Below, one piece after another: positions 121-52,795 of a DNA stretch of 64,000 bases (position 1 is the first letter of the stretch; every line of letters starts with the position of its first letter). The stretch lies in IMG/VR virus record IMGVR_UViG_3300037089_000424; one strand, written 5' to 3'. The notes below the pieces were generated by a model. The model searched no databases, was not told the origin of the DNA, and saw only the letters and a program-made list of their open reading frames with translations. The position numbers and the translations under genes were made by a program. The DNA is from a virus.

Positions 121-2754
121 TCAACGGAACTGACTAGGCACAACGAAACTACAGGTCATCGGTGTTGTACGCTCCAACTCAATCATGTGGCCAAGATCCT
201 TGTCTGTCAACTTAAAATCAACATCGAATGGCACCTTGCAATACCACCCGATTTTCTCTTTCAGGAAGTCTCGGTCGGTCATGAACTCGTAAAGCTTAGG
301 GATCACATCGTCAGTTTCCTTACGGTGTACCATGAGATAATTGGCGTCGTGGACCACATTGATAGGCTTCGTTTTCATTCTATTCTTCATGAGCCACTTT
401 GCCATCCGATTGCCAGCCACCCATGTGAGATCTGAAGCGTCGCCCTGAATAGGCGCATTTATTCCTTGACGAACAGCTTCGTTTGCGGCACCCGGCCTAG
501 AGTCATCTACAGCAGGCAGGTGTCTGATGCGGCCAAAGTAAGATACCACAAATTTGTTAGCCCGGATAAGCTCTTCTTGGTCATACCGATACTGCAAGCA
601 GTTGTCGTATTTACCAAAATACCGATCAATGAATTGTTGGGCTTTCTTAAGTGGCCAACCCATGTCAGCAGCCAAGGCTCTGGCAGAGCGACCATAGAGT
701 AAACCAAAGGATATGGCGTTCTTAGAGAAGTTCCTCTGATCCTTTGTTACTTGCTCTTCTGGAATCTCGAATCCAGCTGCTGCGCCCATCCGATGAGGAT
801 CCTTACCAGCCAGGAACTCTTCTAACATCTTGTCATCGTTAGCTCTGTCACAAAAGAGACGCATCTCGAGTTGTTTCTCGTCACCTTCCAGAAATAGATA
901 GTCATCGCTGTCCGGAACGAACTGCGCTTTCAGAACGGAAGCGATATGGACTCTACTTGGGAAGTTCTCGTGATTAGGATTTTCACTCGAGACCCTTCCA
1001 GTCAGAGTACCATGTACTTTGAACGACGTATGGGTCTTGTCATCACTCCCAATCCAACCATCCACAGGCAGAACGTATTTTGTATAGCCATAATAGAATT
1101 CATTTCTCTTGAAGATGAGTTGCAACGTTCTGTCATTCCTGTGCCTACGCTCAAGCCTTTGAAGGGACTTCTTGTTAACAGAAGGCTTGCCTGTTTTCGT
1201 CTCTAAGACTGGCTCCCAATCCTTGACTTTGAACAAGAGAGTACGAATGGTCTCGGTATTGAATTTGACGCCTTTCCAAGACTTCGTGAACAGTTCTATG
1301 GCTTTGGCCTTGGGATTCTTAGGCTCTCTCTTATAGTTTTGGACCCTCCCAAGAATCTTCTTCATCAGATTCCATTTATAGATGGCCTCAACTTTTTTGA
1401 AGTCCCCAAAGCCGCGAATCTGGTCCTCATACTCTTTTATTTTCTGCGGAAAGAGCTCAAGCAACCTGTCATTCTCTTCACGAGAGATCTTTACGCCATT
1501 AATCTCCAGATAGCAAGCTAATTCGTTGTGCCACATGATTGGGAACCGAAATGGATTCTCGTACAGACCTTGCTTCACCAATCGATGCTTGACAATGGCC
1601 AACATCCTCCAGTCTGCAATGCAATCCCTGCCATTATAGTCGTACAAGATATCGGCCGGCACAAGGCACAGATTTCCACCATGTTCTGGATTAGTTTCTG
1701 GATGGTCTCTCTGGTAAACTCTGAGAGGTTCATCATACCCGCCCATATCTAGTTTCCACGCCCATTGCTTCAATCCGTGGGTGCCCTTCTGTTCGTTCAG
1801 AGCATAAGAGCCAAGGCCAGTGTCAAGCCAATAGTTCCGCAACCAGATTCCGTGTAGGACATACATATACACACGGTCGTACTTGCCAAACTGCAGTGCG
1901 AACCTGATGTGTTCGTCCTCCCAAAGCTCTTTGATCGCTTCCAGACACTCTTCAGGAGAGACGTGGATCTTCTTCCCAAGAGAGCCAATTCTCGAGTGTA
2001 TAGGATAACAGGCCGCAGACCATTCATCCCAGCCAAAACCAACAACGCCAACGACAGGCTTGATAAAGCGATTGAATGGGCTGAGCGTGCTACCCTCGAT
2101 ATCCGTTGTTAGGATAATTTGTTTCTTCAAAAAATCCGTTGTCTCTTGAAGCTGCTTCTTGTCTTTGACAACGTCACACTTGAACTTGCTTTTCTTTAGA
2201 GAGACATTCCTCTTAGTATCGTTACCCAATTCTTTGGCCGCTCTCAGCGCCTGGAGGAAATCTCTCTCGTTCTTCGGAACGTCTCTCAAGACATAGCTAG
2301 GATGGACGACGCAGATGTAAGCACGGCCATGCGCCCGGAACACCTCACCATTCAGGCGCGTGATGCCCGTCCTATTGAGGACTGATTTTATGGCGACGTT
2401 GCCAAGCAAGACTACGACCTTTGGATTGTAGAAATGGATCTCTCGAAGGATCTTAGCTCGGCAGAACTCTATGGCATATTTGTGGGCCTGGATATTGTTG
2501 TTCGGAGGTCGGCACCTGACAGCATTAGAGAAGCGGCATTTCTGAATCAGGAACCCAAGCTCCTCAATCTTCTCACGAAGATATTGCCCAATCTTACCGA
2601 TGAAAGGAAATCCTCGGTTGTCCTCTTCCGCACCGGGAGCCTCGCCCACAAAGAGGAAGACTGGATTCTCTGAACCTTCGCCATTCATGACAACAGACTT
2701 GCACGTGCGAAAGAGGCCACACTTTAGGCAGTCTTCATCCGACTTTCTTGTCAT
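121..2754 (-). CDS. polA: family A DNA polymerase with N-terminal family-4 uracil-DNA-glycosylase-like domain and 3'-5' exonuclease
   Basis: CxxC and GEAPG, NAVRCRPP, VHPSY (UDG4); TDIEG (ExoI); TGRVSSENPN, DEKQLEMR (motif A), KNAISFGLLYG (motif B), NAPIQGDASD, VHD (motif C); start moved to ATG 2754 behind GAGGG. Confidence 0.95.
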   Translation of the reverse strand: MTRKSDEDCLKCGLFRTCKSVVMNGEGSENPVFLFVGEAPGAEEDNRGFPFIGKIGQYLREKIEELGFLIQKCRFSNAVRCRPPNNNIQAHKYAIEFCRAKILREIHFYNPKVVVLLGNVAIKSVLNRTGITRLNGEVFRAHGRAYICVVHPSYVLRDVPKNERDFLQALRAAKELGNDTKRNVSLKKSKFKCDVVKDKKQLQETTDFLKKQIILTTDIEGSTLSPFNRFIKPVVGVVGFGWDEWSAACYPIHSRIGSLGKKIHVSPEECLEAIKELWEDEHIRFALQFGKYDRVYMYVLHGIWLRNYWLDTGLGSYALNEQKGTHGLKQWAWKLDMGGYDEPLRVYQRDHPETNPEHGGNLCLVPADILYDYNGRDCIADWRMLAIVKHRLVKQGLYENPFRFPIMWHNELACYLEINGVKISREENDRLLELFPQKIKEYEDQIRGFGDFKKVEAIYKWNLMKKILGRVQNYKREPKNPKAKAIELFTKSWKGVKFNTETIRTLLFKVKDWEPVLETKTGKPSVNKKSLQRLERRHRNDRTLQLIFKRNEFYYGYTKYVLPVDGWIGSDDKTHTSFKVHGTLTGRVSSENPNHENFPSRVHIASVLKAQFVPDSDDYLFLEGDEKQLEMRLFCDRANDDKMLEEFLAGKDPHRMGAAAGFEIPEEQVTKDQRNFSKNAISFGLLYGRSARALAADMGWPLKKAQQFIDRYFGKYDNCLQYRYDQEELIRANKFVVSYFGRIRHLPAVDDSRPGAANEAVRQGINAPIQGDASDLTWVAGNRMAKWLMKNRMKTKPINVVHDANYLMVHRKETDDVIPKLYEFMTDRDFLKEKIGWYCKVPFDVDFKLTDKDLGHMIELERTTPMTCSFVVPSQFR

Positions 2755-3277
2755 TAGAGCCCTCTGTTCCAAGACTCTGAATATTCTTCAGCCAAGCATC
2801 AAACTCCATCGGTGCCACAGCCGCTTGCCAGCTGAGAGCTTTGATCGCGTACACTGCCAAATCGCCAAGGGTCTCAGTAAGAGTTTCTTCGGCCTCACTG
2901 TCTCCCCCAGCCACAGCATCAATTCGGTCAAACTTCCGAGCTATGTTTGCAAAGATCCCTGGCCAACCACGCCTACACCAAGACGCTTGGTAGTGTTTGC
3001 CTTTGAATGCCTCCAATTTTGTGAGGAAGGCACACATAGCTGCAAACAAAGAAGCACTCTCACAATTTCCATTGACAGGAAGATAGAATTGTGCAACCAA
3101 AGAATCCGGTGAGGAGACCATCGAGATAGCGTTCCTGAAGCCTATTTCGGCAGCTTGAACTAATTCATCTCCATCAGTCGGCCTTCTGATAGCTGCTTCG
3201 CGAGAGGCTTCGTAGATTCCCTTCTCGAGCTTCTGTTTTTCTTCTTTCAGCTTTTGCAATGTAGCTTCATCCAACAT
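2735..3277 (-). CDS. nucleotide-modification-associated domain protein (Nmad1/DUF1599-like helical domain)
   Basis: KGKHYQASW...GIFANIARKFDRI...ETLGDLAVYAI pattern; true start ATG 3277 behind AAGGAGG. Confidence 0.6.
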   Translation of the reverse strand: MLDEATLQKLKEEKQKLEKGIYEASREAAIRRPTDGDELVQAAEIGFRNAISMVSSPDSLVAQFYLPVNGNCESASLFAAMCAFLTKLEAFKGKHYQASWCRRGWPGIFANIARKFDRIDAVAGGDSEAEETLTETLGDLAVYAIKALSWQAAVAPMEFDAWLKNIQSLGTEGSNDKKVG

Positions 3278-4427
3278 GGTTAGGTTCCTCCTTCCTGAAT
3301 TTGAGAACGATCTCTTTCGCGAGAGGATTCTTATCAATCTGTCCCTTGTAGAAATCCAGCACCAACCACTTGAACAACTCTGGAAGAGATGCAATCGAAC
3401 CCATGAGCCAGGCATACTGGTCTGGAGTGAATACTGCTCCTGTCTTCACAGAGCAGTAGATGAGAAGCATCTTTGGTATAAGGAGGCCCCAGTAGCCAAC
3501 CCCTGGCAAGATATTTGCATAATGCAATGGGTCAACGAGATTCCCCTTTCCGTAAGCTTCAACCAATTGGTTGACATAGTCGATTGTCGGCTTCAGCTTC
3601 TCGTCAGATATGGGCTCAAAACTAGAGATCTTGCAGGCCACTAAGCCTTGAACGCCTACACTGCGCACAACGGATCCTAGAGCGTCTGACTGATTGGTGT
3701 CAGAAGGATGGATTAGTATTGCGTCATGAATCGTGCCCCTGCCTTCATACTCAGCATACACATGAAGATTCTGGACGAAATAGGTTATCGCTCCACACTG
3801 CACACCAAGATTACCTGCAACCAGGGCCAGCAAGTGGGTAAATTGGACGGCATTATAGGGAGTGCCCCAAATGATATCATTAGAACGGATAGCGACAGAC
3901 ATATTCAGCTTGCCATCCCGAAGCGAGAAAGCCACCCAATTGTTACAAGGGTAGTCATTTGACTCTGGCTTATTGTCAGAGATTGGGTCCCACAAGGAGA
4001 TAATCGCTTGTCTGGAAAAGGGGTCTTCCTTGAGCTTGTTACAGACAGCCTCTATCTGATCCACGTAGATAGAATGGCCTACATAGCTGCCTCTACAATC
4101 CCGAATCCTCTTGCCGTAGGCCCCATGAAAATCAGGCTGGCCTTCATCAGCAAACTTCCTCATGTTAGAGTTGAAGAAGGATATCCACTCCACATTTCCG
4201 TTACCAGAGAGAATCCATATAACCTCAGCCAGAGCGAAGAAGATGTTGAACCTCCGGCCCGGAATCTTCATAAAGCAGGCGCCAGGTGTCTCATACTGAA
4301 GAACCACAGGCACTGTCATCTCGATGCATCGCCGATCACGAACTGTGACTTGCCTACCATGGGCAATCAGATCAGCGAACAATTCTTGGTAGAACGAACC
4401 TAATCCTACTCCGGAATAGACCTTCAT
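3267..4427 (-). CDS. thymidylate-synthase-family enzyme, probably dUMP hydroxymethylase
   Basis: FALAEVIWILSG, GAYGKRI, SRQAIISLWDP, DYPCN, IRSNDIIWGTPYN (Asn = dUMP specificity), NLHVY; long C-terminal extension; next to aGPT-Pplase1. Confidence 0.85.
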   Translation of the reverse strand: MKVYSGVGLGSFYQELFADLIAHGRQVTVRDRRCIEMTVPVVLQYETPGACFMKIPGRRFNIFFALAEVIWILSGNGNVEWISFFNSNMRKFADEGQPDFHGAYGKRIRDCRGSYVGHSIYVDQIEAVCNKLKEDPFSRQAIISLWDPISDNKPESNDYPCNNWVAFSLRDGKLNMSVAIRSNDIIWGTPYNAVQFTHLLALVAGNLGVQCGAITYFVQNLHVYAEYEGRGTIHDAILIHPSDTNQSDALGSVVRSVGVQGLVACKISSFEPISDEKLKPTIDYVNQLVEAYGKGNLVDPLHYANILPGVGYWGLLIPKMLLIYCSVKTGAVFTPDQYAWLMGSIASLPELFKWLVLDFYKGQIDKNPLAKEIVLKFRKEEPNHVG

Positions 4428-4672
4428 TCCTTGACTCCTCTCTTCTTTAGATAGTCCACTAGATCCTGGACCGTGACAAACTTTTGGGCATCCCCATCAT
4501 CTATCTCGGCAATCTCGAAGATCTCTTCCAGATCGATTACCAACTCTACCAAGTCAATAGGGTCGGCTCCTAGATCTTCATTGAGCTTGGATTTCAGCAT
4601 GACCTCTTCTTCAGACGAACCAAGTTGCTCTACGACGATTCTTCTGACCCGATCTTCAAGAATTTCCGCCAT
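4424..4672 (-). CDS. acyl-carrier-protein-like protein lacking the phosphopantetheine serine
   Basis: RVRRIVVEQLG...EDLGADPIDLVELVIDLEEIFEI...TVQDLVDYL matches AcpP except DSLD is DPID. Confidence 0.85.
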   Translation of the reverse strand: MAEILEDRVRRIVVEQLGSSEEEVMLKSKLNEDLGADPIDLVELVIDLEEIFEIAEIDDGDAQKFVTVQDLVDYLKKRGVKE

Positions 4673-4692
4673 ATTTAGATCCCCCTTATAAG

Positions 4693-4717
4693 AATGAAAC
4701 CCCTCGATGGGCAGGTT
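4693..4717 (-). promoter_or_regulatory. copy 2 of AAC-N15-TTTCATT motif
   Basis: AAC CTGCCCATCGAGGGG TTTCATT upstream of the AAGGGGG RBS of the ACP-like gene. Confidence 0.5.
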
Positions 4718-4912
4718 ACGATTTCCTAGGAAATCTCTGAATAGGAAAGTTTAGGTTGGCAAATTGTCCATGAAAGAGGAGCGCAGCCGCATCGTATGTC
4801 TGAGCAGCTTCAATAATGTCAGCATAAGTTCCTAAATAGACCCTCCTGCCTTTGCTGAGGTCTATTCGAGATTGCCACAGCCTTTCGCGAAGGTCAAAGA
4901 AATCCTCTTCAT
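4716..4912 (-). pseudogene. AP2 DNA-binding domain remnant of an HNH-AP2 homing endonuclease
   Basis: WQSRIDLSKGRRVYLGTYADIIEAAQTYDAAALLFHGQFANLNFP is AP2-like; the coupled ATG at 4912 is out of frame with the domain by one base. Confidence 0.65.
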
Positions 4913-5928
4913 GACTTCGCCTTGAACAGCGATCCGTGGTAGAGTTCGTCATCTCGCGGAGTGAACTTTATTCTGGCCTTACCACAGTTGTGTCTCATCT
5001 TCCAAATCTTAGCGAAGCAACACAGTGAGTGTTCGATCTCCCGTAGAGTGAGCCTCTTCTCTTTGCCGCCCACAACCAGATATGGGAATTTCAGGCCAAG
5101 CCTCTCAAAGTGCTGCTCCTGCTCAGTACAAAGCTTCTTGATTGCATCGACGAAGGAAACATAGCTTCTGTCCGGAAAGATGATTGAGATCCCGACCTTG
5201 CAGCCAGGCCCAGGATTGACAAAATCGTTGTGGGTGAAAGGGATTGCACCTACCATGACGAGGTCTGTCAGAACTTCATAAGAGATAAAATTTCCAATGC
5301 AGGGCACTATCATCAAGCGCTCATACACTGCCTCCAGTGTAGGTGCATATTTCACTGCAAGGAATAGATCTTCGATGTTCGAAATAGTGTAATTCAGAAC
5401 TTCGATGTATTTGTCAATCTTAGAGGATCCAATCTCATGTGTGGGGAGTGTGAGGTGGGCACTCGTGAAGACAGGCTTGCCCGCCTTCTTGAGTTCACGG
5501 AGGCTATTGCCAAATTTAACAGGGTCGTACTCAGTGCAAGACGGAACACCTCCTACAGCTTCAAATGTCTCCACTCGATTCAGGAGTCTATACACAATCG
5601 TTCGCCATAAGAGGTTCATCTTTGCGTTATCAAGATCATCATCGCGATGGACGACCTTCTCTACATCATGGTACTCAACAGCGATGTGCTCGTTGTACCA
5701 AATTGTGCCACGGTCAAGCTGGCGGTAGATATTTTCGAACTTGTAGTGTTGAAGAATCGGATCTTTTGTCCATGGCGGAGGCTCCTTTTTGAGAAATCGC
5801 CGCACCCAGATGGAGTGCCTCTCAAACATGAACGTGTAGAACTCATCCAGATGTTTCTGGACCACCTTAACCTTTGGTAATTCCCTCCAAGGGCGATACC
5901 GATCCTTGCTACTCATTGGGGCCTCCAA
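4909..5928 (-). CDS. alpha-glutamyl/putrescinyl-thymine pyrophosphorylase clade 1 (aGPT-Pplase1, amino:DNA transferase family)
   Basis: FERHSIW...PPPWTKDPILQHYKFENIYRQLDRGT N-terminal signature; GNFISYEVLTDL and GPGCKVG HhH-like region; EHSLCCFAK. Confidence 0.85.
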   Translation of the reverse strand: MEAPMSSKDRYRPWRELPKVKVVQKHLDEFYTFMFERHSIWVRRFLKKEPPPWTKDPILQHYKFENIYRQLDRGTIWYNEHIAVEYHDVEKVVHRDDDLDNAKMNLLWRTIVYRLLNRVETFEAVGGVPSCTEYDPVKFGNSLRELKKAGKPVFTSAHLTLPTHEIGSSKIDKYIEVLNYTISNIEDLFLAVKYAPTLEAVYERLMIVPCIGNFISYEVLTDLVMVGAIPFTHNDFVNPGPGCKVGISIIFPDRSYVSFVDAIKKLCTEQEQHFERLGLKFPYLVVGGKEKRLTLREIEHSLCCFAKIWKMRHNCGKARIKFTPRDDELYHGSLFKAKS

Positions 5929-5943
5929 AACATTTCAAAAACA

Positions 5944-6183
5944 CTATATTCCAGAGCTCAGCATGGTCAATCCACATCGTCGGCAACGGTCAGCAGTTGT
6001 GTAAGTAACAGTATTCAAACACAATGTGATATCTTCCCAATCGTGTCGCTTAATCCAGAATTGCCACCAATGCTTCTTTGGATCGGAACAAGGTGTAACA
6101 ATAGAATTCATTGTTGCAATCTGCCCGCTTCTTGACATTCCTGGCTTGATTTGCGCGATCTGCTCTTCCCAAGTTGGTGCCAT
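5944..6183 (-). CDS. small hypothetical protein with H...CxxC tail (DUF1660-like)
   Basis: ATG 6183 behind GGAGG; RHDW...RCRRCG. Confidence 0.55.
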   Translation of the reverse strand: MAPTWEEQIAQIKPGMSRSGQIATMNSIVTPCSDPKKHWWQFWIKRHDWEDITLCLNTVTYTTADRCRRCGLTMLSSGI

Positions 6184-6304
6184 GCTAGCCTCCATTTAGA
6201 AGATTACCACTCGTTTTCGACAGGCTCGGTGATCCCCCTGTCTTACCCTGTTAGACGTGTCCCAGATTCTTTTAGTTTCTTAGGAACCACAAGGCATCAC
6301 CTCC

Positions 6305-6499
6305 TCAAGAGCCATCCTCCATGATGAATCGGACAATGATTTTGACCTTCTCACATCCCTTTGGGATGACACTCTTGCTGATGTAGAGATTTGAGAAGCC
6401 AGCCTTCTTGCCCTTCTCTTCGTTCGCCTTGAACCGAACGCTTCTCTTGCAGACCTTGTCGACTTTCATGAACACAGACCTTTTGTTGGCTTCTTCCAT
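6305..6499 (-). CDS. small basic hypothetical protein
   Basis: ATG 6499 behind AAAGGAGG. Confidence 0.6.
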   Translation of the reverse strand: MEEANKRSVFMKVDKVCKRSVRFKANEEKGKKAGFSNLYISKSVIPKGCEKVKIIVRFIMEDGS

Positions 6500-6512
6500 A
6501 CAATTTCCTCCT

Positions 6513-7592
6513 TTAGATGAAATTGACGTGATCGGGAGCATCGTCTGTAGGCAATTCTCCCAAGACAAGATACGCTTGCAGACTCTTGTTAGCTTGGTTC
6601 AACTGACAGAGCGGAGTGCACTCGTGCGTGTCAATCGACGTATGCAGTTCCAGCCTTCTATGGCCCTTCCAAATATCAATGAATGATTCGTCTTTGATGT
6701 TCCCGAGGACCATTTTTGGGTCTTCCTTATATGCACAGCAAAAGAAGACTTCCCCTGTCGCACCAATCACTGTCTCGAAGGCATGCGCGTGACACCGATG
6801 ATAAGTGCGACCCCAATTCTTCTCAAGAACATCCTTGAACTGACCCTCTGTTGCTAGGACCTTGAACTTGTCAGTTGTGAAGTCCTGTTTTGCTATCTTC
6901 ATGTGATAGAAGATTTCTTCCCACGCAGCAAGATCTTTAGCCTGTAGAATCTCTACTTGATGATAAGGTCTGTACTGACAGTAGTCTATGCCAAGCTTCG
7001 CGCACAGCTGGGCAAAGCTATAGATGTCCATCATCGTCCTTGGCGCCGTAAGATACCCAGCACCAATGGTGCAAGATCCACCATACCGCCCCTTGTAGTC
7101 TGCCATCGCAACCAGATTGAGGCATATTTTCTTGAAATCTGCTGGTCCGGCTCCGTGCGTCAACATATGCTGTGCCATGCAACTTGCGTCCAGACTGACT
7201 CGAACCCAAGTGCAGATATCTATAAAGAATCCTGGGTCCGTCAACAAGGTGCCATTCGTGATCAAACCAACCTGTATCCCAAGGTCTTTCGCAAGTTGCA
7301 TTGCGCCACGAGTGGCTGGATTCACGAGAGGCTCGCCACCGCCAGAAAATGTGATTGCCTTCAGACCGATGTGGCTAAAGTCCTCTATCAATCTGGCCAT
7401 ATCTGAATAAGAGAGGCTGTTGCTGTTCGTGGCGAGCAAGCCTTTGAATATGCAATCCGGACACTCGTGATTGCATGCATTCGTTGGGTCAAGTTTGCAC
7501 GAAATTGGCCAAGCGTCAGTTGGTGATTTGTGCCATTCCCTAACCCTTTCAGCGTGGTACATGATTTTGTTTGGTTTGAACTGATTCATCAC
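6513..7592 (-). CDS. radical SAM protein with SPASM/twitch domain
   Basis: CNHECPDC (CxxxCxxC), FSGGGEPL, ITNGTLL; C-terminal RC...GEVFFCC...LGNIKDESFIDIW...CTPLC. Confidence 0.92.
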   Translation of the reverse strand: MMNQFKPNKIMYHAERVREWHKSPTDAWPISCKLDPTNACNHECPDCIFKGLLATNSNSLSYSDMARLIEDFSHIGLKAITFSGGGEPLVNPATRGAMQLAKDLGIQVGLITNGTLLTDPGFFIDICTWVRVSLDASCMAQHMLTHGAGPADFKKICLNLVAMADYKGRYGGSCTIGAGYLTAPRTMMDIYSFAQLCAKLGIDYCQYRPYHQVEILQAKDLAAWEEIFYHMKIAKQDFTTDKFKVLATEGQFKDVLEKNWGRTYHRCHAHAFETVIGATGEVFFCCAYKEDPKMVLGNIKDESFIDIWKGHRRLELHTSIDTHECTPLCQLNQANKSLQAYLVLGELPTDDAPDHVNFI

Positions 7593-8004
7593 TCCTCCTC
7601 AGTTGTTCAAGTTTCTCATCAATCTGCTTGATCTCTGTTCGCTTGGCTACGAGAAGCTCGCTTATCGCAGCCAACCTCTTGCGGGCCTCTTCCTGACGGA
7701 TCCGTTTCTCGAGTTCTTGTCGACGATACATTCTTCGCTCTCGCCGACAGTCGGCACAAAGATTTGGCAGAGTCAGCTGCCTACCTCTCCACCAATCCAC
7801 TTCTTTCTCAGCCATCTCTATCTTCTTGCCACATTTGCGGCACAAGGATTCGTAAACTATCCATTTTCTCGTAATTGCATCTCCTTTCATTATTTCATTA
7901 TCGCTAAGACCAAATCTGCCACATCCGGAACAGAGCCCATAGGTATTCTCTTTAGGAGCACCACAGTTCCAGCATGGCCCAGACGGAAGTCTTGGATTAA
8001 TCAT
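7549..8004 (-). CDS. zinc-ribbon protein (double CxxC plus zf-trcl-like domain) with coiled-coil tail
   Basis: CWNCG..CSGCG; CRKCGKKIEMAEKEVDWW...PNLCADCRRERR. Confidence 0.7.
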   Translation of the reverse strand: MINPRLPSGPCWNCGAPKENTYGLCSGCGRFGLSDNEIMKGDAITRKWIVYESLCRKCGKKIEMAEKEVDWWRGRQLTLPNLCADCRRERRMYRRQELEKRIRQEEARKRLAAISELLVAKRTEIKQIDEKLEQLRRSDESVQTKQNHVPR

Positions 8005-9442
8005 ATCTTGGCCACCTCCTCATTCTTGAAAATTGGATCTTCCGTGGATGCCTACACAAAATTTCATATTTCCCGCCACAATCTGTGCACCGAAGCTTGG
8101 ATGCAACGGCCCCTTGTGCGGCAAGTTCTGCACCACAAGAGTAGCACACTCGTGGGCAATACAAAAATGAGTCCGGATTGTCAAGCAGTCTGGCTTTGAG
8201 ACGCTCTGCTGGATTTCCTTCTCTCAAAACTTCTTTGTACGCTCGAAGATATTGAACGTGTCGTTCGTACTGATGCAAGTCAACACCTTCGTACGTTTCA
8301 ATGATACGGCCAAGTCTGCCCATGATCAGGTCTTCCTTATTCTCTCTAAGCTTCTCGATGCCGGCCCATTCTGCTTCCCACATACATTTCCTCTTGCCAT
8401 AATCCAGACCAACAACAAAGTCAATCATGTCATGGCCATTGGCTGGCACAACGTATAATGAACTTGGAATTTTTGGCATGTACTCGCCATACTGATGTGT
8501 GACGTCACTGTCAAAATGGAAAGCATTGTCGACCAAGAGCACCGTTCCTGAACTCAAGACTTCGTAGAACCTTGGCGCCAGATTTGCTGTCTGGACGAAC
8601 TTGGGCCCACCGATATGCACAACGCAAGCAGCCGTGTTGAGGTGCCCTCGACTGGTCCCTTGAGCAGTCTTGCCTAGAAATTTGGCGTGAGGCAGCTTGT
8701 TGGACACAGATTGTGGCCAATTGCCATAGATAGCAACGTGGCCTGGATAGTCGTAATATGATAAGAACATCTGCATCCGGGAACGGTGGTTCCCAATGTA
8801 CATGAGATCCCACTCCGGATGTTTGCAGAAAGGCAACGGATCCTCGATTCCTAGGATCGGTGTAGGAAAATTCTCAGCCGGGATATGCAGACTTTCATAT
8901 GGCCAACGCATCGTGCTACAGATCTTCGTAAAGACTTTGGGCTTGAAAGCCTGTACCAGCACAACCCATGTTTTGTCGCGAGTCAGATCCAGAGAGGGCG
9001 CCATCTTGTAGTATCCGGGCATGAAATAAGATTCGACTCCAAATGACTCCAGCGTGAAGACGAAGCCAAGGTCAATGTCATGCTCGAAATATAGGACCAA
9101 TCCTTCATAGCCCGCAATGACCTTGTTGGCCAGCACGATATACGGTATGTGATCTTTGCCAGCGAAGGTTGTGTTCGTTGGGCCACACTCTACAAGAAGA
9201 ACATCCAGATCCTTCGTATGGCCGAATGGACGATATGTAAGTTGCTTAGGGAAGCGTTTCTGCAGAGCCTTGAACGCTTCCCAATGTGCTTTTCCGATCT
9301 CAGACAAGACGACAATCTCGACGCCATTCTTCAAAAGACACTGCCAAAGACGAACACGTATGCGGCTGCCACCTGACGACGTACCTTTTTGTGACAAGTC
9401 CAGATGAAAAGCTTGTCCATACTTAAGAGTACCAAGCCGCAT
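7997..9442 (-). CDS. GT-B glycosyltransferase resembling T4 DNA beta-glucosyltransferase, with C-terminal Zn ribbon
   Basis: DLMYIGNHRSR...VAIYGN...AKFLGK...VVHIGG..F...APRFYEVLSSGTVLLVDNAF parallels the BGT C-lobe as I recall it (DVIYGGSFR...FTGK...LRVWETMASDAVMLIDEEF); C-terminal CYSCG...CTDCGG. Confidence 0.7.
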   Translation of the reverse strand: MRLGTLKYGQAFHLDLSQKGTSSGGSRIRVRLWQCLLKNGVEIVVLSEIGKAHWEAFKALQKRFPKQLTYRPFGHTKDLDVLLVECGPTNTTFAGKDHIPYIVLANKVIAGYEGLVLYFEHDIDLGFVFTLESFGVESYFMPGYYKMAPSLDLTRDKTWVVLVQAFKPKVFTKICSTMRWPYESLHIPAENFPTPILGIEDPLPFCKHPEWDLMYIGNHRSRMQMFLSYYDYPGHVAIYGNWPQSVSNKLPHAKFLGKTAQGTSRGHLNTAACVVHIGGPKFVQTANLAPRFYEVLSSGTVLLVDNAFHFDSDVTHQYGEYMPKIPSSLYVVPANGHDMIDFVVGLDYGKRKCMWEAEWAGIEKLRENKEDLIMGRLGRIIETYEGVDLHQYERHVQYLRAYKEVLREGNPAERLKARLLDNPDSFLYCPRVCYSCGAELAAQGAVASKLRCTDCGGKYEILCRHPRKIQFSRMRRWPRYD

Positions 9443-9459
9443 ACGTGTCTCCCCATTTC

Positions 9460-9873
9460 TCAGGATACATTATCCAACTTGTCAGCAATCTCCTGAAGAC
9501 GACTGTAGAGCACCTCGTCCGTCATGTTCGATGTGACAAATTCTTCCGAGAGTGCCCGTATCTCTTCAGCAACATCGCCAACAGTGGGGTTGGTGCTATT
9601 GCTTACCTTGGATGACTCCTTGGCCGACTTTCTCTTAGCTCGACATTCGGGACACCGTTTGGGCATAGAGAAGTTCTCGCCCTCTCTCTCCTTCTTTGCC
9701 ACCAGGTCCTGCCACCACTTGTATTCCTTGGCAGTCATGATGATTTCTTTGCTACATTCGATACATGTGCCCGCAGTGACACTAGCACCATCACCTTGAA
9801 TCTCGGGAGATCTCTCTTCTGCCTGCTCCTCCCAGCGAGGGTTCCCTCTCATTTTATTCATTGCGTGAGACAT
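9460..9873 (-). CDS. zf-trcl-like zinc-ribbon protein (paralog of 7549..8004)
   Basis: CIECSKEIIMTAKEYKWW...PKRCPECRAKRK. Confidence 0.7.
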   Translation of the reverse strand: MSHAMNKMRGNPRWEEQAEERSPEIQGDGASVTAGTCIECSKEIIMTAKEYKWWQDLVAKKEREGENFSMPKRCPECRAKRKSAKESSKVSNSTNPTVGDVAEEIRALSEEFVTSNMTDEVLYSRLQEIADKLDNVS

Positions 9874-10708
9874 TCTTCAACTCCTCCTTCCGGAGCCCCT
9901 GGATGTTGTTGTTAGTTGTCAAAACTTCGTGCAGAAATCTGGATGCAGACAGCACCAATCCGCTTTCTGAAGCAAAATGAGCTATTGCCAACAAATCCTT
10001 TGGCAAGCACTTTCCGCCAAATCCACGCTCATCGGTAACAATAGTGTGAGACCGGCCCATCCGGCCATCCATAAGCCAAGCTTCTCGCAGAACGTTGTAG
10101 TCAACACCCACAGAGTCGGCCAAGATCTTGAACACATTGCAGAACGTCACCTTTGTAGCCAGGAAAGCATTCTCCATATACTTGACAAGCTCAGCGGTAC
10201 GACTATCAACGAGCATGACTCGGAGTTCAGGCCCATGAATATGCCGAAATATGTCCGCCACCTCCTGAGCTTTCTTTAAATCATCGGTGACGCCAAGGAT
10301 GAGGAACGGAGGACCATCCTCATAAGGGTGAGACGAGAGGAAGTTTCGCTCGCCAATGAACTCTGGCGCAAATACGACGGACGACTCACCCTCCATCCAA
10401 CGAGTCATCAATCTTCGACAGGTTCCAGGCAACACTGTGGACCTGATACAAACAGTTGGGCACTTGATCCAAACAAAGATTTCTCTCAGTATCGAGAGAT
10501 CCTGATCTCCATTCTCTTCTGTGGGAGTTGGGACACAGACGAAAGCAATGTCACAGGCATTGACTTCCCCTATTGGAGCAGACTGTGCCAACAGATATGG
10601 AGGATCGTATAGAGCCTTGACCACGCAAACTGACTCGTGCGCCTTTCTCAAGAAGTTGAGCATGTGGGTTCCCACATAGCCGCAGCCAACGATCGCTATT
10701 GTTTTCAT
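9854..10708 (-). CDS. ugd: UDP-glucose/GDP-mannose 6-dehydrogenase family, short form without the C-terminal domain
   Basis: MKTIAIVGCGYVG Rossmann motif, VCVPTP, IRSTVLPGT, PEF, AELVKYMENAFLATKVTFCN, GFGGKCLPKD; ATG 10708 behind GGAGGAAG. Confidence 0.9.
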   Translation of the reverse strand: MKTIAIVGCGYVGTHMLNFLRKAHESVCVVKALYDPPYLLAQSAPIGEVNACDIAFVCVPTPTEENGDQDLSILREIFVWIKCPTVCIRSTVLPGTCRRLMTRWMEGESSVVFAPEFIGERNFLSSHPYEDGPPFLILGVTDDLKKAQEVADIFRHIHGPELRVMLVDSRTAELVKYMENAFLATKVTFCNVFKILADSVGVDYNVLREAWLMDGRMGRSHTIVTDERGFGGKCLPKDLLAIAHFASESGLVLSASRFLHEVLTTNNNIQGLRKEELKNVSRNE

Positions 10709-10995
10709 GCTGGTTTCTTCCTCCTTTTTGGTTTTGACTCCGTCGTCTTCAGTGTACGAGGATCTGTGTATGACATTCCTGCCATCAGAGTGATCCTCTT
10801 TGCTATTTCGTAGAGAGCAGGGATTTCCTTCCGCATGATAGTTCCCTTCTTTGCGCAAGCCAAGACAGTACGCCTAGAACTCCAAAGGACGTTCCAATGC
10901 TTGAGTTGATAGTTGGCCTCCTTCACAGCCATCCTGATCTCAGAGATAGCATTGTCAAGATGGCAATTTACTACATTCAGTGCTTCTCTTCTCAT
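10705..10995 (-). CDS. hypothetical protein
   Basis: ATG behind AAAAGGAG; ATGA overlap with the ugd-like gene. Confidence 0.6.
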   Translation of the reverse strand: MRREALNVVNCHLDNAISEIRMAVKEANYQLKHWNVLWSSRRTVLACAKKGTIMRKEIPALYEIAKRITLMAGMSYTDPRTLKTTESKPKRRKKPA

Positions 10996-11094: not shown

Positions 11095-11130
11095 CAAGAA
11101 ATGTGTGGGGCAGAGTTTCCCCTGCCCCAC
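11095..11130 (-). terminator. rho-independent terminator candidate
   Basis: 9-bp stem GTGGGGCAG/CTGCCCCAC (11105-11113, 11122-11130) followed by ACATTTCTT on the minus strand. Confidence 0.6.
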
Positions 11131-11171: not shown

Positions 11172-12239
11172 TCATTCTTCTTCTTCTTCACTGGCCTTCA
11201 TCTTCATCTTTGCCTTCTTGAAGATGATGCGCAGTTTCTTGCCGAGGAATTTCACATTGCCCTTGAACTCGTATTTGCCCTTGCCAGCAGGTTTCCAGTC
11301 GGTAGACTTCATGCCGATGGCCGCAGGCTTGAGCCGAGTCAAAAGACGAACGACAAATCCCTCATCGCGATTCGCTCTGGCAATCCGAGCGAATCTCTTG
11401 CCGGCGATGGAAACGAAGAACAACGGTTTCTTGGCTTTCTGGGTGAGTTCACCACCAAGTTTCTTGTACCGAGACCTGTTCAAGATTGACTGCAAGGTCT
11501 CAGACAGGCCAGTGGACTTCGGTGCGGATTCCTTCTCCGACCGATCCTCCCTTTCCTTCTTGGCTTTCTTCTTGGCTTTCTTCACAGTACCTCCGCCTTC
11601 TTCCTTCTTGGCTTTCATGACTGTATTGCAATTATCGGATTCCAGACATTGTCTGCATTCCGGAACGTCTGGGTCGCGGAATTTGCCAAAGCAGTCCTGT
11701 ACACCAGGAGGGATGGGTGAGGACGGCGGACGAGGAGTATAACTCTCGGGATCGATCCGGACCAGGTTGGATTTCTTCCCGCCCTTTTCCTCCTCATCTT
11801 CGTCCTCGTCTTCGTCGTCAGTTTCTTCGTCATCCTCATCCGAGTCTTCATCTTCGTCATCGTCATCGGACTTCTTTTTCTTCTTTTTGGGTTTGTCGTC
11901 TTCGTCTTCATCCGAATCATCATCGGAGTCATCGGAGTCATCATCGTCATCGTCCGAGTCTTCATCTTCGTCATCGTCATCGGACTTCTTTTTCTTCTTT
12001 TTGGGTTTGTCGTCTTCGTCTTCATCCGAATCATCATCGGAGTCATCGGAGTCATCATCGTCATCGTCGGAGTCATCGGAGTCGTCGGAGTCATCATCAT
12101 CGGAGTCGTCGGAATCGTCATCATCTTCATCATCCGACTTCTTTTTCTTCTTTGGTTCTTCGTCGTCATCATCAGCATCTGGCGCTGACTTCCCTTTCTT
12201 GGCCTTGTTGTGCTTTTTCTTTTTTCCTACATTTTTCAT
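11172..12239 (-). CDS. protein with long Asp-rich/Lys-block disordered N-terminus, Cys4 motif and basic C-terminal domain
   Basis: alternating D/S and K blocks; PIPPGVQDCFGKFRDPDVPECRQCLESDNC; ATG behind AGGGAGG. Confidence 0.8.
   Translation of the reverse strand: MKNVGKKKKHNKAKKGKSAPDADDDDEEPKKKKKSDDEDDDDSDDSDDDDSDDSDDSDDDDDDSDDSDDDSDEDEDDKPKKKKKKSDDDDEDEDSDDDDDDSDDSDDDSDEDEDDKPKKKKKKSDDDDEDEDSDEDDEETDDEDEDEDEEEKGGKKSNLVRIDPESYTPRPPSSPIPPGVQDCFGKFRDPDVPECRQCLESDNCNTVMKAKKEEGGGTVKKAKKKAKKEREDRSEKESAPKSTGLSETLQSILNRSRYKKLGGELTQKAKKPLFFVSIAGKRFARIARANRDEGFVVRLLTRLKPAAIGMKSTDWKPAGKGKYEFKGNVKFLGKKLRIIFKKAKMKMKASEEEEE
11840..12067. repeat. exact tandem duplication, 2 x 114 bp (38 codons), inside the acidic protein
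   Basis: 11840-11953 is identical to 11954-12067. Confidence 0.9.
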
Positions 12240-19825: not shown

Positions 19826-20227
19826 TCATGCTTTTGAAATTCGCCTACTCACCCTCTTGATCTTGGCCTTTGTCCAGGTCCGTGCCGCTGGGTGAAGTAT
19901 CTTCAGGACTCTGGCATTCTTCGGACGATAGCCGCAGTCGCGATATGTCCTCTGAGCAATCTTGCCACATACGAGGAGCACATCGATTCCAATCCTTTCT
20001 TCAAGCCTACGAAGATTCTCGGCAAGCCAGTCAGGATCAGGATTGCCATGTTTCCTTGCGTTGTTGACATACTCACAGCAGGCGTTTGTGACAAAGAGTT
20101 TCGCGTCGCCGCCTATGAGCCGATACAGACGCCGTCCGCTGTGATTGTAGGGATTAATGCAGAAGAAGCGCGGTGCATGACCTTCTCCTCCCCACATAGT
20201 ATCCAGAACCGCAACTATTTTCTTCAT
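19826..20227 (-). CDS. stand-alone uracil-DNA-glycosylase-superfamily-like protein
   Basis: NHSGRRL, FVTNAC, VLLVCGKIAQ, LHPAAR parallel UDG-fold motifs. Confidence 0.6.
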   Translation of the reverse strand: MKKIVAVLDTMWGGEGHAPRFFCINPYNHSGRRLYRLIGGDAKLFVTNACCEYVNNARKHGNPDPDWLAENLRRLEERIGIDVLLVCGKIAQRTYRDCGYRPKNARVLKILHPAARTWTKAKIKRVSRRISKA

Positions 20228-47877: not shown

Positions 47878-49086
47878 TTACCCTGCCAGAGCAGACCGTA
47901 TCTCCGCTGCGACTACTTCTGGTGCCAACTGATCCATACAAGGAGAATATTGGCCTTTTCCGTGGCACCCACTCACGTCGATGAAACATCCCACACTGCA
48001 AGATTTCTGCCCGTCCGGAAGCAGGCCAGTCACATAGGGAACACGCAGGCCACGAGCGTGCGGTTGGAAGTGAGCCAAAAATGGGAATGGCTCGTGTGGC
48101 CCATACAAAGAGATTGCTTTCTTCCCTTGTGACAAGCGAACATAGAGAAGCCCTGTGTCAGAAGAGCAAAATAGGTCGGATTCTATCGCTACTGCAGCAG
48201 AATATCTAAGCTTGAAGGCTCCAGAACAGTCAGTCACTTTGCTGCCAAGTTCGCCCCAAGCAGCTGGATCAAATCTGTGATCTAGAATGATCCAATGGTA
48301 AGGCTCATTTTCCAGGATCTTTATCACCTTGCGCCAATGCGGATAGTCTTTGTACACAGTAGACGTGTGTGGTACCAAGGCAATTGGCTTGAGTCCTGCA
48401 TTCCGGACTCCTTGCATGAGTTTTCTAGCGAAGTCTAACTCCTCTTGATGAGGATAGTAATAGACTGTTCTGTTAGGCATCGACTCTGGATCCAAATATG
48501 CGTGTTTACAATACAAGTCTAGCGCCACAAGACGATAGCGATTGATCACCGAATTGCTGGCCTGCTCCATGAACTCTTTCTCGTCGCGATTCAGTTCGCT
48601 GATAGGCTTGTCTGACAGCTTGATCAAGAACTCGTTGAAATATGGCTTCGTCCGCAAATGAATCTTGTAGTCGAAGCCTCCTTTCAGTGGCACGTCGTAA
48701 TCCAGCCAATACCACTCAATGAGTGGATCATACATCTCGAATAGCCTATCCACGTCGTTCCAATGCCAGAGATCGTCTATATCCGGATTCCCTTCGAGAA
48801 TATCGGGGTGATGGCAAACCACAGAGATTTTGACGGTCGGGAACTTCCTTCGTATTTCACGAAGAACTGGTGTCAGATACAACAAATCTCCGATTCCCCA
48901 TGTGTGCTTGACAATCAAGTGCTTGTCATTCAGATCCACATCACCTCTATAGGGTACACGCCTACGCAAGCGATTCTGATACTCGTCCCAATCATACACT
49001 TTCACTTTTTGGCCAAGCGTATTGGTAATGTATTCAGGCTTGGGCTGAGTGACAGCGAATGTGAGTGTCTCGTTTTCGGCCGGCAT
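47878..49086 (-). CDS. GT9 (heptosyltransferase-like) glycosyltransferase
   Basis: GIGDLLYLTPVLREIRRKFP...ILEGNPDID; SDLFCSSDTGLLY...AISLYGP. Confidence 0.88.
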   Translation of the reverse strand: MPAENETLTFAVTQPKPEYITNTLGQKVKVYDWDEYQNRLRRRVPYRGDVDLNDKHLIVKHTWGIGDLLYLTPVLREIRRKFPTVKISVVCHHPDILEGNPDIDDLWHWNDVDRLFEMYDPLIEWYWLDYDVPLKGGFDYKIHLRTKPYFNEFLIKLSDKPISELNRDEKEFMEQASNSVINRYRLVALDLYCKHAYLDPESMPNRTVYYYPHQEELDFARKLMQGVRNAGLKPIALVPHTSTVYKDYPHWRKVIKILENEPYHWIILDHRFDPAAWGELGSKVTDCSGAFKLRYSAAVAIESDLFCSSDTGLLYVRLSQGKKAISLYGPHEPFPFLAHFQPHARGLRVPYVTGLLPDGQKSCSVGCFIDVSGCHGKGQYSPCMDQLAPEVVAAEIRSALAG

Positions 49087-49107
49087 GAATTTCTCTCTCC
49101 TTTTCAG

Positions 49108-49791
49108 TTATGGGTGCCGCACGTTCACCTTCGGGTCAACCCAGAGTTTGTACCCATGCGACCGCATGCTGTCGCAGAAGCTGAGAACTTCCCGCTCGGG
49201 AGGCTCAAATTTACAAACTCTCGCCACATCGCCTCGCACTACGAAACAAGAGCCTGCGTAATCCATTGGATACATGCCATTTGGCGATGGTGTCTTGAAC
49301 ATTGGATGGAATGGCGGTGGGTCGCGAAATCCAATGCCACCAGAACTGTATGCCCATGTGTCGTAGAACATGTGTTCACGATTATCACACAAGCAGAGTG
49401 GAACCACAGCATCGACTTCTTGGAGTCTGTCCAAGAGCCGTATCATAGTCCCAGGTTCCCAAACCAGATCGCTTTCAACATAAATCAATGCTTCGTGAAG
49501 AGATGTGATCTGATCCAGAATACCACTATCTGCGTAGGACTTCTGTCTCTCTCGTTGTTCAATGCACGGACTCCCAGAACCAAATATGGGGCCACCATGC
49601 GCACGCTTCACAACTTGCCCAGGAAATGCTTCGTTCAGCAGATCCCATGTATTGTCAGTGGAATCTCCTTCGACTAAAGCAGCGTCAAAGGAATGCTGAG
49701 GAGCAGCCTGAACCAAGCTTTGGAACAAAGTGACATATCTCTTTACGTACCCTGCAGAGTTGCAGAACACAGATCCAACTGCTACTCGCAT
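49108..49791 (-). CDS. GT-A fold glycosyltransferase (GT2/Anp1-like)
   Basis: LVEGDSTDNTW, LIYVESDL, FYDTWAY, GSCFVV, VDPKVNVRH. Confidence 0.75.
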   Translation of the reverse strand: MRVAVGSVFCNSAGYVKRYVTLFQSLVQAAPQHSFDAALVEGDSTDNTWDLLNEAFPGQVVKRAHGGPIFGSGSPCIEQRERQKSYADSGILDQITSLHEALIYVESDLVWEPGTMIRLLDRLQEVDAVVPLCLCDNREHMFYDTWAYSSGGIGFRDPPPFHPMFKTPSPNGMYPMDYAGSCFVVRGDVARVCKFEPPEREVLSFCDSMRSHGYKLWVDPKVNVRHP

Positions 49792-49806
49792 TGTTATCCT
49801 CCTTTA

Positions 49807-50727: not shown

Positions 50728-50742
50728 CGGGTCCTCCTCAAA

Positions 50743-51402
50743 TCACTTCACAAAAATCCCCACTCCATTATAAACGTGCAATGGAGCGTAGTGGTATCCA
50801 TATGTTTCGGCGAATCTGTCAGCAGCTTGCTTGATCTGACTGCCGAGATCAATGTCATCCAGAAATATCACTTGAGATCCCACCGTATAGCTCCGTATCA
50901 AATCATTCAGACAACCCTCTTCGCTGTGGTCCCCATCGACGATCGTCATTATAGATTTCCCAGCATATTGATTAGAGATAGAATGGCCATGTTCAGCGAA
51001 GAAATCTTGGCTTTTCATGCCAAAGAAACGGAAGATGTTGGGATACCATTCGTTCAACAAGGCGATTCCTAGAGGTCCATTAACGTAACCTTGCGGGACA
51101 GGGTCAACACTCATAAATAATGGCGAAACAGCTTGAGGACGATGTGCGTCAATGTAGGCTAAAAAGGGCTTGTCAGGATTGTGACACTGATCTTCAAACT
51201 GACCAAACCCATCGGCGAGGGCTTCGAGAACGAAAAGCGCCGACTTTCCCCACAAATGTCCGATTTGAATAGTCAAATCGGGTTTGTAAAACTTGACCAA
51301 GGCGTACAAAAATGAAGCCACCTCGTCCACCATCCAGCCACAATTTGTTGAGGCTCCAGTGACTTCCCGTAGTTTTTGGACGCGTTCTGCAAGTCGGATC
51401 AT
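50743..51402 (-). CDS. class I SAM methyltransferase (Methyltransf_24-like)
   Basis: IQIGHLWGKSA, IVDGDHSEEGCLNDL, IFLDD. Confidence 0.8.
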   Translation of the reverse strand: MIRLAERVQKLREVTGASTNCGWMVDEVASFLYALVKFYKPDLTIQIGHLWGKSALFVLEALADGFGQFEDQCHNPDKPFLAYIDAHRPQAVSPLFMSVDPVPQGYVNGPLGIALLNEWYPNIFRFFGMKSQDFFAEHGHSISNQYAGKSIMTIVDGDHSEEGCLNDLIRSYTVGSQVIFLDDIDLGSQIKQAADRFAETYGYHYAPLHVYNGVGIFVK

Positions 51403-52780: not shown

Positions 52781-52795
52781 CTCAACCTCTACCTT

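Follow-up and report, generated by a model that had tools for sequence, protein, structure and literature searches.

A 64,000-nt stretch of phage DNA (IMG/VR record IMGVR_UViG_3300037089_000424, hereafter the window) encodes a thymidylate synthase (TS) homologue, a protein of family PF18723 and a DNA polymerase I (PolA) fused to a uracil-DNA glycosylase (UDG), together with a glycosyltransferase (GT) that resembles the β-glucosyltransferase (BGT) of phage T4. We find this DNA-modification cluster to be real and coherent. Our preferred reading, which we hold to be somewhat likelier true than false, is that the phage DNA would carry O-glycosylated 5-hydroxymethyluracil (5-hmU), similar to base J, genome-wide and with a tailored sugar. 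An initial annotation of this DNA had proposed that thymine is replaced with 5-hmU, to which a sugar, an amine or both are then added. The predicted replacement is supported by the whole SPO1 gp29-type active-site signature of the TS homologue, and the later addition of a sugar by a BGT-like GT whose place beside TS and PF18723 is conserved in relatives that have diverged.

Hydroxymethylase, polymerase and glycosyltransferase

The genes on which this reading is built are the following.

121-2754, minus strand: PolA with a fused N-terminal family-4 UDG (PF00476 E 5e-64, PF03167 E 4e-24, TIGR00758 E 4e-32)
2735-3277, minus strand: DUF1599/Nmad1-like protein, 180 aa (PF07659 E 0.2)
3267-4427, minus strand: predicted dUMP hydroxymethylase of the SPO1 gp29 type (PF00303 E 2e-28; phrog_5131 E 7e-65)
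4909-5928, minus strand: PF18723 (HMUDK_hel) protein, 339 aa, with a helix-hairpin-helix (HhH) glycosylase-like fold (PF18723 E 3.5e-58)
7549-8004, minus strand: zf_Tbcl-like Zn-ribbon/treble-clef and coiled-coil protein (PF13451 E 0.002)
7997-9442, minus strand: T4 BGT-like GT-B glycosyltransferase, 481 aa (family profile, AlphaFold2 (AF2) and Foldseek, conserved synteny)
9460-9873, minus strand: zf_Tbcl paralogue upstream of the GT (PF13451 E 1.3e-6)

The TS homologue has the YPCN and TPYN motifs as written in the initial annotation, which had called a TS-family enzyme with PCN and PYN, and it carries a C-terminal extension of ~160 aa. Its closest phage match is SPO1 gp29 (32% over 292 aa), annotated in the SPO1 record as dUMP hydroxymethylase. 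We aligned the window protein with SPO1 gp29, SP10 gp188, PaMx11 gp51, the Nachito TS and two metagenomic orthologues (n = 7), mapped its residues onto E. coli ThyA via PDB alignments and took the diagnostic positions from published work (PMC13326640). The catalytic Cys (E. coli C146) is kept, with C161 of YPCN aligned to the PCH motif of ThyA structures, and KDxPCN, RSND and Asn192 of TPYN are invariant in 7/7 sequences. N192 occupies the base-specificity position (E. coli N177), which is Asp in dCMP enzymes; this points to uracil, not cytosine. D158, at position 143 (Asp, not Leu), and D184, at position 169, are likewise invariant in all seven hydroxymethylase-type sequences. Hydroxymethylases have a non-Leu residue at position 143, and D169N marks 5-hydroxycytosine synthases (PMC13326640); the Asp found at the latter position thus excludes the 5-hydroxycytosine synthase signature. 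On these residues, the prediction that the TS homologue is a dUMP hydroxymethylase is well supported, and the conversion of dUMP to 5-hydroxymethyl-dUMP would be the first step of the pathway, the one for which homology is strong.

PolA, of 877 aa by the public gene call (which starts later than the 883-aa open reading frame, ORF), is composed of UDG, exonuclease and polymerase domains only. The UDG motifs GEAPG and HPS lie at residues 37 and 151, in agreement with the UDG-fused PolA of the initial annotation, and orthologues in two related loci, L002 and L015, are 45-51% identical. The fused UDG polymerases of the SPO1 type resemble the window protein (PMC13697223). By homology, and from the published biochemistry of related polymerases, this enzyme would build 5-hmU DNA and remove stray uracil as the second step. 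A second, free-standing UDG-superfamily protein of 133 aa is encoded at 19826-20227 (PF03167 E 1.4e-5).

The GT belongs to a rare group, with only 87 relatives among 1.84 billion cluster representatives. Pfam, including PF09198, gave zero matches on the GT itself, and PF09198 matches only 1/50 relatives. A profile of 50 relatives nevertheless matches T4 BGT at E 7e-28, for an identity of ~18%. In this family, the conserved D122 falls on BGT D100, and R291 and E294 fall on the UDP-binding R269 and E272; the register of D122 on D100 is confirmed by the D100A mutant entry, which differs at exactly that column. The AF2 model (pLDDT 89.4) has T4 BGT as all of its top six Foldseek matches (TM 0.78, E 5e-13), whereas other GT-B enzymes reach TM 0.57 or less, and an ESM Atlas search is in agreement. 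As the initial annotation proposed, the GT is thus BGT-like at the level of fold and active site, judged from the model and the aligned residues. It differs from T4 BGT by its low identity, by the lack of a PF09198 match and by an extra C-terminus of ~100 aa, predicted to consist of helices and a CxxC...CxxC Zn ribbon.

In T4 BGT-type enzymes, the sugar goes straight onto the hydroxymethyl group of the base. The acceptor of T4 BGT (family GT63) is 5-hydroxymethylcytosine (5-hmC) in DNA; the window phage is predicted to make hydroxymethyluracil, and its acceptor would be 5-hmU. Taking together fold, catalytic residues and synteny, we propose as the third step that an inverting, BGT-like GT would flip out 5-hmU in duplex DNA and transfer a sugar from an NDP-sugar to the 5-hmU hydroxyl, giving a base-J-like 5-(glycosyloxymethyl)uracil. 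The GT is flanked by the two zf_Tbcl genes. The downstream protein (7549-8004) directly follows the GT and is similar to the single zf_Tbcl protein encoded between GT and PF18723 in L002 and L015; the upstream paralogue (9460-9873) has the zf_Tbcl genes of these two loci as best match, at E 1e-11.

The PF18723 protein, its context in related phages and the search for amine-transfer genes

PF18723, under its former name alpha-glutamyl/putrescinyl thymine pyrophosphorylase (aGPT-Pplase) clade 1, is present in hundreds of phages and was reportedly predicted in 2013. The window protein matches profile positions 2-277 of 281 with 197.7 bits against a cut-off of 25, and the aGPT-Pplase1 of the initial annotation is thereby confirmed. 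The Pfam name HMUDK_hel and the older name are not contradictory, since the Nachito "aGPT-pyrophosphorylase clade 1" protein matches only PF18723, JGI gives the name [quoted passage not shown] to a homologue that belongs to PF18723, synteny pairs the window protein with PaMx11 gp50 as well as the C-terminal half of gp186, the SP10 kinase, and the SN1 genome note places aGPT-Pplase1 at that position (PMC9476957).

In an alignment of 50 PF18723 sequences, the invariant residues R37, N66, R69, D72, D222, E299, C303 and K307 are all present in the window protein, and the conserved motif reads REIEHSLCEFxKY. At residue 304, a Cys replaces the near-invariant Glu only in this phage among the 50 aligned homologues (Cys-Cys vs Cys-Glu). 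A 79%-identical relative keeps Glu304. The AF2 model (pLDDT 92) gave zero Foldseek matches in the PDB at E 0.001 or better, and phmmer against PDB sequences returned noise only. Exhaustive comparison with VIA-align placed DUF2419 (Z 10.4) and PaMx11 gp46/PUGT 8z2m (Z 10.2 over 215 residues) at the top, followed by ~20 HhH DNA glycosylases at Z 7-10. EIEHSLC of the window protein aligns with EVETILC of PUGT, which contains the metal-binding E243 and the C6-attacking C247 (PMC11472151). Since the E-x-x-L-C motif, source of the C6-attacking Cys in clade 2, is kept, clade 1 probably has genuine enzymatic activity, directed at a flipped pyrimidine (a 5-substituted uracil), and is not a mere helical accessory. 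A complex prediction for the PF18723 protein with the zf_Tbcl protein 9460-9873 scored 0.00, which counts neither for nor against binding.

The initial annotation had ascribed the addition of glutamate or putrescine to clade 1 enzymes. This is contradicted by the published record: the amine and amino-acid transferases shown to work, M6 gp51, ViI gp247, PaMx11 gp46 and PhiW-14 gp109, are all of clade 2, and reconstitution of the M6 pathway could do without gp55, its clade 1 protein (PMC8989533). A 5-hmU DNA kinase (PF18748 type) was searched for in six-frame ORFs with phmmer and with a hidden Markov model (HMM) of three kinases (Nachito, PaMx11 and SP10), using --max. None was found in the window, in the 13 kb beyond PolA (contig L010) or in the 21-kb locus L002, so that the remark of the initial annotation that no kinase is visible in the window holds over a wider range. 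The search for kinase and transferase covers ~77 kb of a genome of roughly 80 kb, and the Walker A motifs found belong only to FtsK, RecA and similar proteins. Pfam ORF scans and phmmer with PaMx11 gp46 gave no amino-acid:DNA transferase (PF18724, former aGPT-Pplase2) in the window, L010 or L002, and Pfam scans of the window ORFs no pyridoxal-phosphate (PLP) enzyme. Since neither kinase, nor PF18724, nor PLP enzyme was found, the amine half of the initial proposal, and with it a hybrid of amine and sugar chemistry, is not supported.

The context of the cluster in related phages points in the same direction. The nearest relative of the GT, at 44% identity, lies in L002 (the same phage is represented in L003 and L004). 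There the gene order is HU, sigma factor, acidic protein, two small genes, GT, zf_Tbcl, PF18723, TS, HD nucleotidase, 180-aa protein and UDG-PolA. In a more distant phage (L015), two tandem GT paralogues (40% and 31% identity) precede zf_Tbcl, PF18723, TS and UDG-PolA. No kinase accompanies the GT in either L002-L004 or L015. These paralogues, of 500 and 445 aa (L015:6129-9338), suggest a disaccharide or two linkage types. The 180-aa protein is also conserved downstream of TS, with orthologues in L002 and L015 that are 35-38% identical; its description as Nmad-like in the initial annotation is only weakly backed, by the PF07659 (DUF1599/Nmad1) match listed above and by language-model (Atlas) feature matches of 0.90-0.91 to DUF1599 clusters. 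A dehydrogenase, a radical SAM enzyme and an acyl carrier protein (ACP)-like protein, all encoded in the window cluster, have no counterpart in L002 or L015. The core therefore consists of GT, zf_Tbcl, PF18723, TS, the 180-aa protein and UDG-PolA, and the three other genes are add-ons of this phage.

A sister phage (holding P0115) has the same backbone, with a PF18723 protein that is 43% identical. Upstream of its zf_Tbcl and PF18723 genes stand PF18724 (ADDT), an FAD oxidase of the DAO type and a PF18748 kinase that carries a fused acetyltransferase; this is an amino-acid pathway of the PaMx11 type. Because this kinase/transferase module lies upstream of the same zf_Tbcl and PF18723 pair, it and the GT are, by gene order, alternative occupants of one slot. 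With a GT in the slot of the module, sugar transfer would replace amine transfer and not add to it. Moreover, since PF18723 and zf_Tbcl are common to sugar-type and amine-type cassettes, their role would be independent of the group transferred, and in this phage, where no kinase was found, PF18723 would have to act without one.

The closest PF18723 relative with context (60% identity) is on the P0090 contig, which has no Pfam-recognisable GT or kinase upstream. An unannotated 465-aa protein encoded there, between the position of the 180-aa protein and PolA, could be a relocated GT. A search for related loci with the GT in a viral contig collection returned none.

Tailoring candidates and competing readings

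The three add-on genes of the cluster are the following.

9854-10708, minus strand: short dehydrogenase of the UDP-glucose dehydrogenase (UGDH) family, 284 aa (PF03721, PF00984; TIGR03026 E 2e-41, profile 73-296 of 413)
6513-7589, minus strand: radical SAM enzyme with a SPASM/twitch-type C-terminal domain (PF04055; PF13186 E 1.7e-9)
4424-4672, minus strand: ACP-like protein (NF002148 E 3e-23, PF00550 E 5e-8)

The UDP-sugar dehydrogenase of the initial annotation stands as to its family and catalytic motifs. It aligns to residues 88-309 of the 444-aa UGDH 3vtf, with matching GCGYVG, KYMEN and GFGGKCLPKD, and keeps the catalytic Cys, Lys, Asn and Asp of the family. With 284 aa, compared with ~410-440 aa for full-length enzymes, it is restricted to the NAD-binding and central domains; the C-terminal UDP/GDP-sugar-binding domain is absent and is not encoded next to it. 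Among phage proteins it matches SP-15 gp146 best, which is of full length. Short forms of UGDH-like proteins are seen repeatedly in phages: Microbacterium phage Quhwah (L022:12412-13931) has, immediately behind a GT and close to a ParB-like gene, a short "UDP-glucose dehydrogenase" of 260 aa, and Campylobacter phages show the same shortening. PF18723 was not found in Quhwah or in SP-15.

The radical SAM/SPASM enzyme is as the initial annotation described it, with the CX3CX2C motif CNHECPDC at residues 39-46 (C39, C43, C46) and five C-terminal Cys, compatible with one or two auxiliary clusters. It has many homologues at 28-38% identity, some of them fused to a cytidylyltransferase. In the contexts of three homologues, and in that of the best phage record, the surroundings are without exception those of a glycan or NDP-sugar locus, with GTs, nucleotidyltransferases, epimerases, dehydratases, an aminotransferase, methyltransferases and a transketolase. 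Because of these contexts, a role in sugar tailoring is plausible, and the enzyme, by homology, points to sugar chemistry rather than to the glycinyl-T isomerase type of M6. Matches to BlsE and DesII are weak (TIGR04466 E 3e-6, PDB 7vob E 8e-4, far below cut-offs), and we keep a BlsE-like decarboxylase only for the unlikely DNA-level assembly described below. In the unrelated ~98-kb phage of L017, positions 6905-9948 hold in a row a radical SAM/SPASM gene, a TAGT-family (PF20691) DNA glycosyltransferase, a 117-aa ORF and PF18723. This row adjoins the portal gene and no TS gene is present within 9 kb. The L017 radical SAM enzyme was rejected as a specific relative of that of the window, the parallel being at superfamily level only.

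The ACP-like call of the initial annotation is right as to family, the protein being ~45% identical to bacterial ACPs, but the function does not follow. Pro37 replaces the phosphopantetheine Ser of the DSL motif (GADPIDLVE) in all five contigs of this phage (the window and the near-identical L005-L008), and as read from its sequence the protein cannot carry phosphopantetheine. The ACP of phage RP13 keeps the Ser, and its gene lies elsewhere in the RP13 genome than PF18723. In the window, the ACP-like stop overlaps the TS start.

A second sugar cluster, at 47878-55382, lies next to the major capsid gene (56191-57267). It contains GT9-like, GT2-like and RGP/STELLO-like GTs, an FkbM methyltransferase and a B12-binding radical SAM enzyme, and it probably glycosylates the virion or another non-DNA target. 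The two radical SAM enzymes of the window are unrelated beyond the core.

As a fourth and more tentative step of the preferred pathway, the short UGDH-like protein would convert a primary alcohol into a carboxylate by oxidation, and the radical SAM/SPASM enzyme would also tailor the sugar. Either could work on the NDP-sugar donor or on the sugar already on the DNA; loss of the UDP-binding domain makes action of the dehydrogenase on the DNA polymer conceivable. In such a DNA-level assembly, which we regard as unlikely, the GT would form glycosyl-5-hmU, the UGDH-like protein would turn it into a DNA-bound uronic acid that the radical SAM enzyme decarboxylates or rearranges, and PF18723 would act at C6 of a 5-substituted uracil independently of a kinase. 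If true, this route would yield a uronic or pentosyl analogue of base J not yet described, with radical SAM chemistry of the BlsE/DesII kind, and the exchange of GT for kinase could reveal the function of clade 1 aGPT-Pplases.

Several points weigh against an O-glycosylated, tailored 5-hmU. All steps after that of the TS are inferred, and the acceptor of the GT, be it 5-hmU, a linker or a non-DNA target, is not readable from its sequence. The dehydrogenase, radical SAM and ACP genes stand outside the conserved core. Without its UDP-binding domain, the dehydrogenase may not make UDP-uronic acid or may be inactive. The nearest phage homologue of the radical SAM enzyme adjoins a capsid gene in a glycan cluster, which is not a DNA-modification context, and in the window itself dehydrogenase and radical SAM enzyme could feed the capsid-side glycan pathway, which lowers the certainty of their assignment. 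Finally, many standard shotgun libraries yield an assembly of the genome without difficulty, which speaks against a modification as bulky and as obstructive to polymerases as that of YerA41.

That TS is an ordinary thymidylate synthase in a chance neighbourhood, with no base replacement at all, is hardly credible: canonical ThyA models do score significantly on it, though far below their cut-offs, and against this stand the full active-site signature and C-terminal extension shared with the characterised hydroxymethylase SPO1 gp29, the linkage to PF18723 and UDG-PolA, both hallmarks of 5-hmU phages, and a synteny kept across three diverged phages. The phage could also have plain 5-hmU DNA, possibly partly reverted to T, while the sugar genes at 6.5-10.7 kb work with the capsid-side cluster on a non-DNA target, for instance the host envelope or proteins of the virion. 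The existence of that second cluster next to the major capsid gene speaks for this, as does the location of the radical SAM homologues, the best phage one in a capsid-adjacent glycan cluster and others in bacterial polysaccharide loci. We nonetheless find it improbable, as profile, fold and catalytic residues all mark the GT as specifically T4-BGT-like, a family that modifies DNA, and as it is wedged between replication genes by PF18723 and TS in relatives of 31-44% identity, and swaps position with a DNA kinase/transferase module in the sister phage.

Two further alternatives give PF18723 a larger part. In the manner of SP-15, YerA41 and RP13, it might activate 5-hmU without a kinase and attach a non-sugar linker at the C5 methylene, on which GT, dehydrogenase and radical SAM enzyme would build the sugar. 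We judge this doubtful. T4 BGT-type enzymes act directly on the base hydroxymethyl, the DNA sequences normally, and no linker source is encoded nearby, the only candidate carrier being the ACP-like protein without Ser. PolA, at 877 aa, is also of SPO1-like size and not of the ~1300 aa of SP15-like enzymes (PMC13697223). In favour of a linker, the window PF18723 keeps the catalytic-type E and C motif, and RP13, whose T is hypermodified, has PF18723 and no detectable kinase (PMC13697223); in SP-15-type DNA, a dihydroxypentyl linker bears the sugars, and UGDH and GTs are encoded in the SP-15 cluster (PMC5977210). As for 5-hmU that is both aminated via aGPT-Pplase1 and glycosylated, with the radical SAM enzyme tailoring the amine adduct as M6 gp53 does, we consider it very unlikely, even though PF18723 is present and looks catalytically intact and a radical SAM enzyme does act on glycinyl-T in M6 (PMC8989533). 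The kinase, the PF18724 transferase and the PLP decarboxylase were not found in the DNA covered by the searches, the window radical SAM enzyme belongs to a SPASM family of sugar clusters, and every transfer of an amine or amino acid demonstrated to date is the work of a clade 2 enzyme on phosphorylated 5-hmU, clade 1 being dispensable (PMC8989533).

The pathway we favour can be set beside three kinds of known systems. The PaMx11, M6 and SP10 cassettes consist of the 5-HMUDK kinase, AADT/aGPT-Pplase2, aGPT-Pplase1, a dUMP hydroxymethylase and PolA. The window has in common with them the order of modifying enzyme, PF18723, TS, small or HD protein and PolA, as well as the hydroxymethylase signature and the PF18723 family. 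It differs in having neither kinase, clade 2 transferase, PLP, FAD nor acetyltransferase enzymes, and in carrying the BGT-like GT and zf_Tbcl at the position of the kinase.

SP-15, YerA41, Carin-5 and RP13 have a T-derived base with sugars and a UDG-fused PolA (PMC13697223, PMC5977210). Like the window, the T-modification cluster of SP-15 comprises a UGDH and GTs (PMC5977210), and RP13 has an aGPT-Pplase1 without a kinase and a T modification of glycosylated type (PMC13697223); our search confirmed its PF18723 (E 1.7e-48) and saw no clear BGT-like GT in the PF18723 neighbourhood. The phages of this group are jumbo-type myoviruses with a base-sugar linker, sequencing-resistant DNA and an SP15-like PolA of ~1300 aa that has two large inserts and a C-terminal domain (PMC13697223). 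In contrast, the window phage has ~80 kb, a PolA of SPO1 size, a short UGDH-like protein, a BGT-like GT and DNA that assembles from ordinary libraries.

Base J belongs to the predicted product class, O-glycosylated 5-hmU. In base J, which replaces ~1% of T, JBP dioxygenases form the 5-hmU on the DNA and an unrelated enzyme of the GT-A fold adds the glucose, whereas in the window phage 5-hmU would be produced at the nucleotide level and enter the DNA throughout the genome.

To our knowledge, the T hypermodification pathways studied so far use either a DNA kinase with an amino-acid:DNA transferase or an uncharacterised linker (SP-15, YerA41). No characterised phage whose 5-hmU is glycosylated directly came to light in our full-text searches of a literature collection. 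The initial annotation went too far in treating the combination as unlike characterised phages, as SP-15, YerA41 and RP13 are partial precedents and GT-B enzymes next to ThyS homologues have been counted in metaviromes in silico (bioRxiv 10.1101/2023.12.21.572611).

What emerges is a natural series: one backbone, made up of hydroxymethylase, zf_Tbcl, PF18723 and UDG-PolA, is combined with a kinase/transferase module in one case and with a BGT-like GT in the other. From this series we predict that phages have their own form of base J, whose sugar may be oxidised or tailored. Of most use among the new points is that GT and kinase/transferase module replace each other on the PF18723 backbone, which makes the function of clade 1 aGPT-Pplases testable. 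GTs that accept 5-hmU in DNA, and enzymes that tailor DNA sugars, would also be useful reagents for 5-hmU mapping.

Layout of the locus and genomic setting

The genes in the first 16 kb of the window are all on the minus strand. The modification unit is tightly packed, from a hairpin at 11105-11130 to the end of PolA, and the hairpin separates it from the upstream gene of an acidic protein. Besides the genes given above, the unit and its border comprise the following.

11105-11130, minus strand: strong terminator-like hairpin with an 11-bp stem and 8 GC pairs (consensus scan only)
10705-10995, minus strand: 96-aa ORF, the first gene after the terminator, without family match
5944-6499, minus strand: two small ORFs of ~79-83 aa and 64 aa, specific to this phage
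4716-4952, minus strand: possible remnant of an AP2/HNH homing endonuclease, 78-aa ORF (phrog_99 E 8e-9, AP2-like part only; PF00847 E 0.002)

In the order of transcription, the first half of the unit reads 96-aa ORF, short UGDH-like, zf_Tbcl, GT, zf_Tbcl/coiled-coil, radical SAM/SPASM and the two small ORFs; the second half reads PF18723, AP2/HNH remnant, ACP-like, TS homologue, DUF1599-like 180-aa protein and UDG-PolA. The 96-aa ORF shows partial similarity to a 55-aa ORF located between the two GT paralogues of L015. The two small ORFs have no family match, and no orthologue in L002 or L015; both are called genes in L005-L007. The AP2/HNH ORF sits between the PF18723 gene and the phage-specific ACP gene and is a called gene neither in the public gene calls nor in L005-L008. 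It may be the scar left by a mobile element through which the insertion arrived.

Elsewhere the window encodes other phage functions: FtsK, primase, DnaB, a split helicase, tail proteins and capsid. Many peat metagenomes, drawn from 10 or more studies, contain near-identical contigs (>=99.98% identity), the longest being 80,449 bp. The locus is the DNA-modification and replication module of a ~80-kb tailed phage that recurs in peat metagenomes. Since none of 50,697 phage records matched the region by megablast, this phage is not a known one.

The acidic protein on the other side of the hairpin (355 aa, 11172-12239) has long Asp/Glu-Ser runs and Lys repeats. It adjoins a sigma-70 region-2 protein and an HU-fusion protein, and it is kept, at 46% identity, just upstream of the modification unit in both GT-type relatives.

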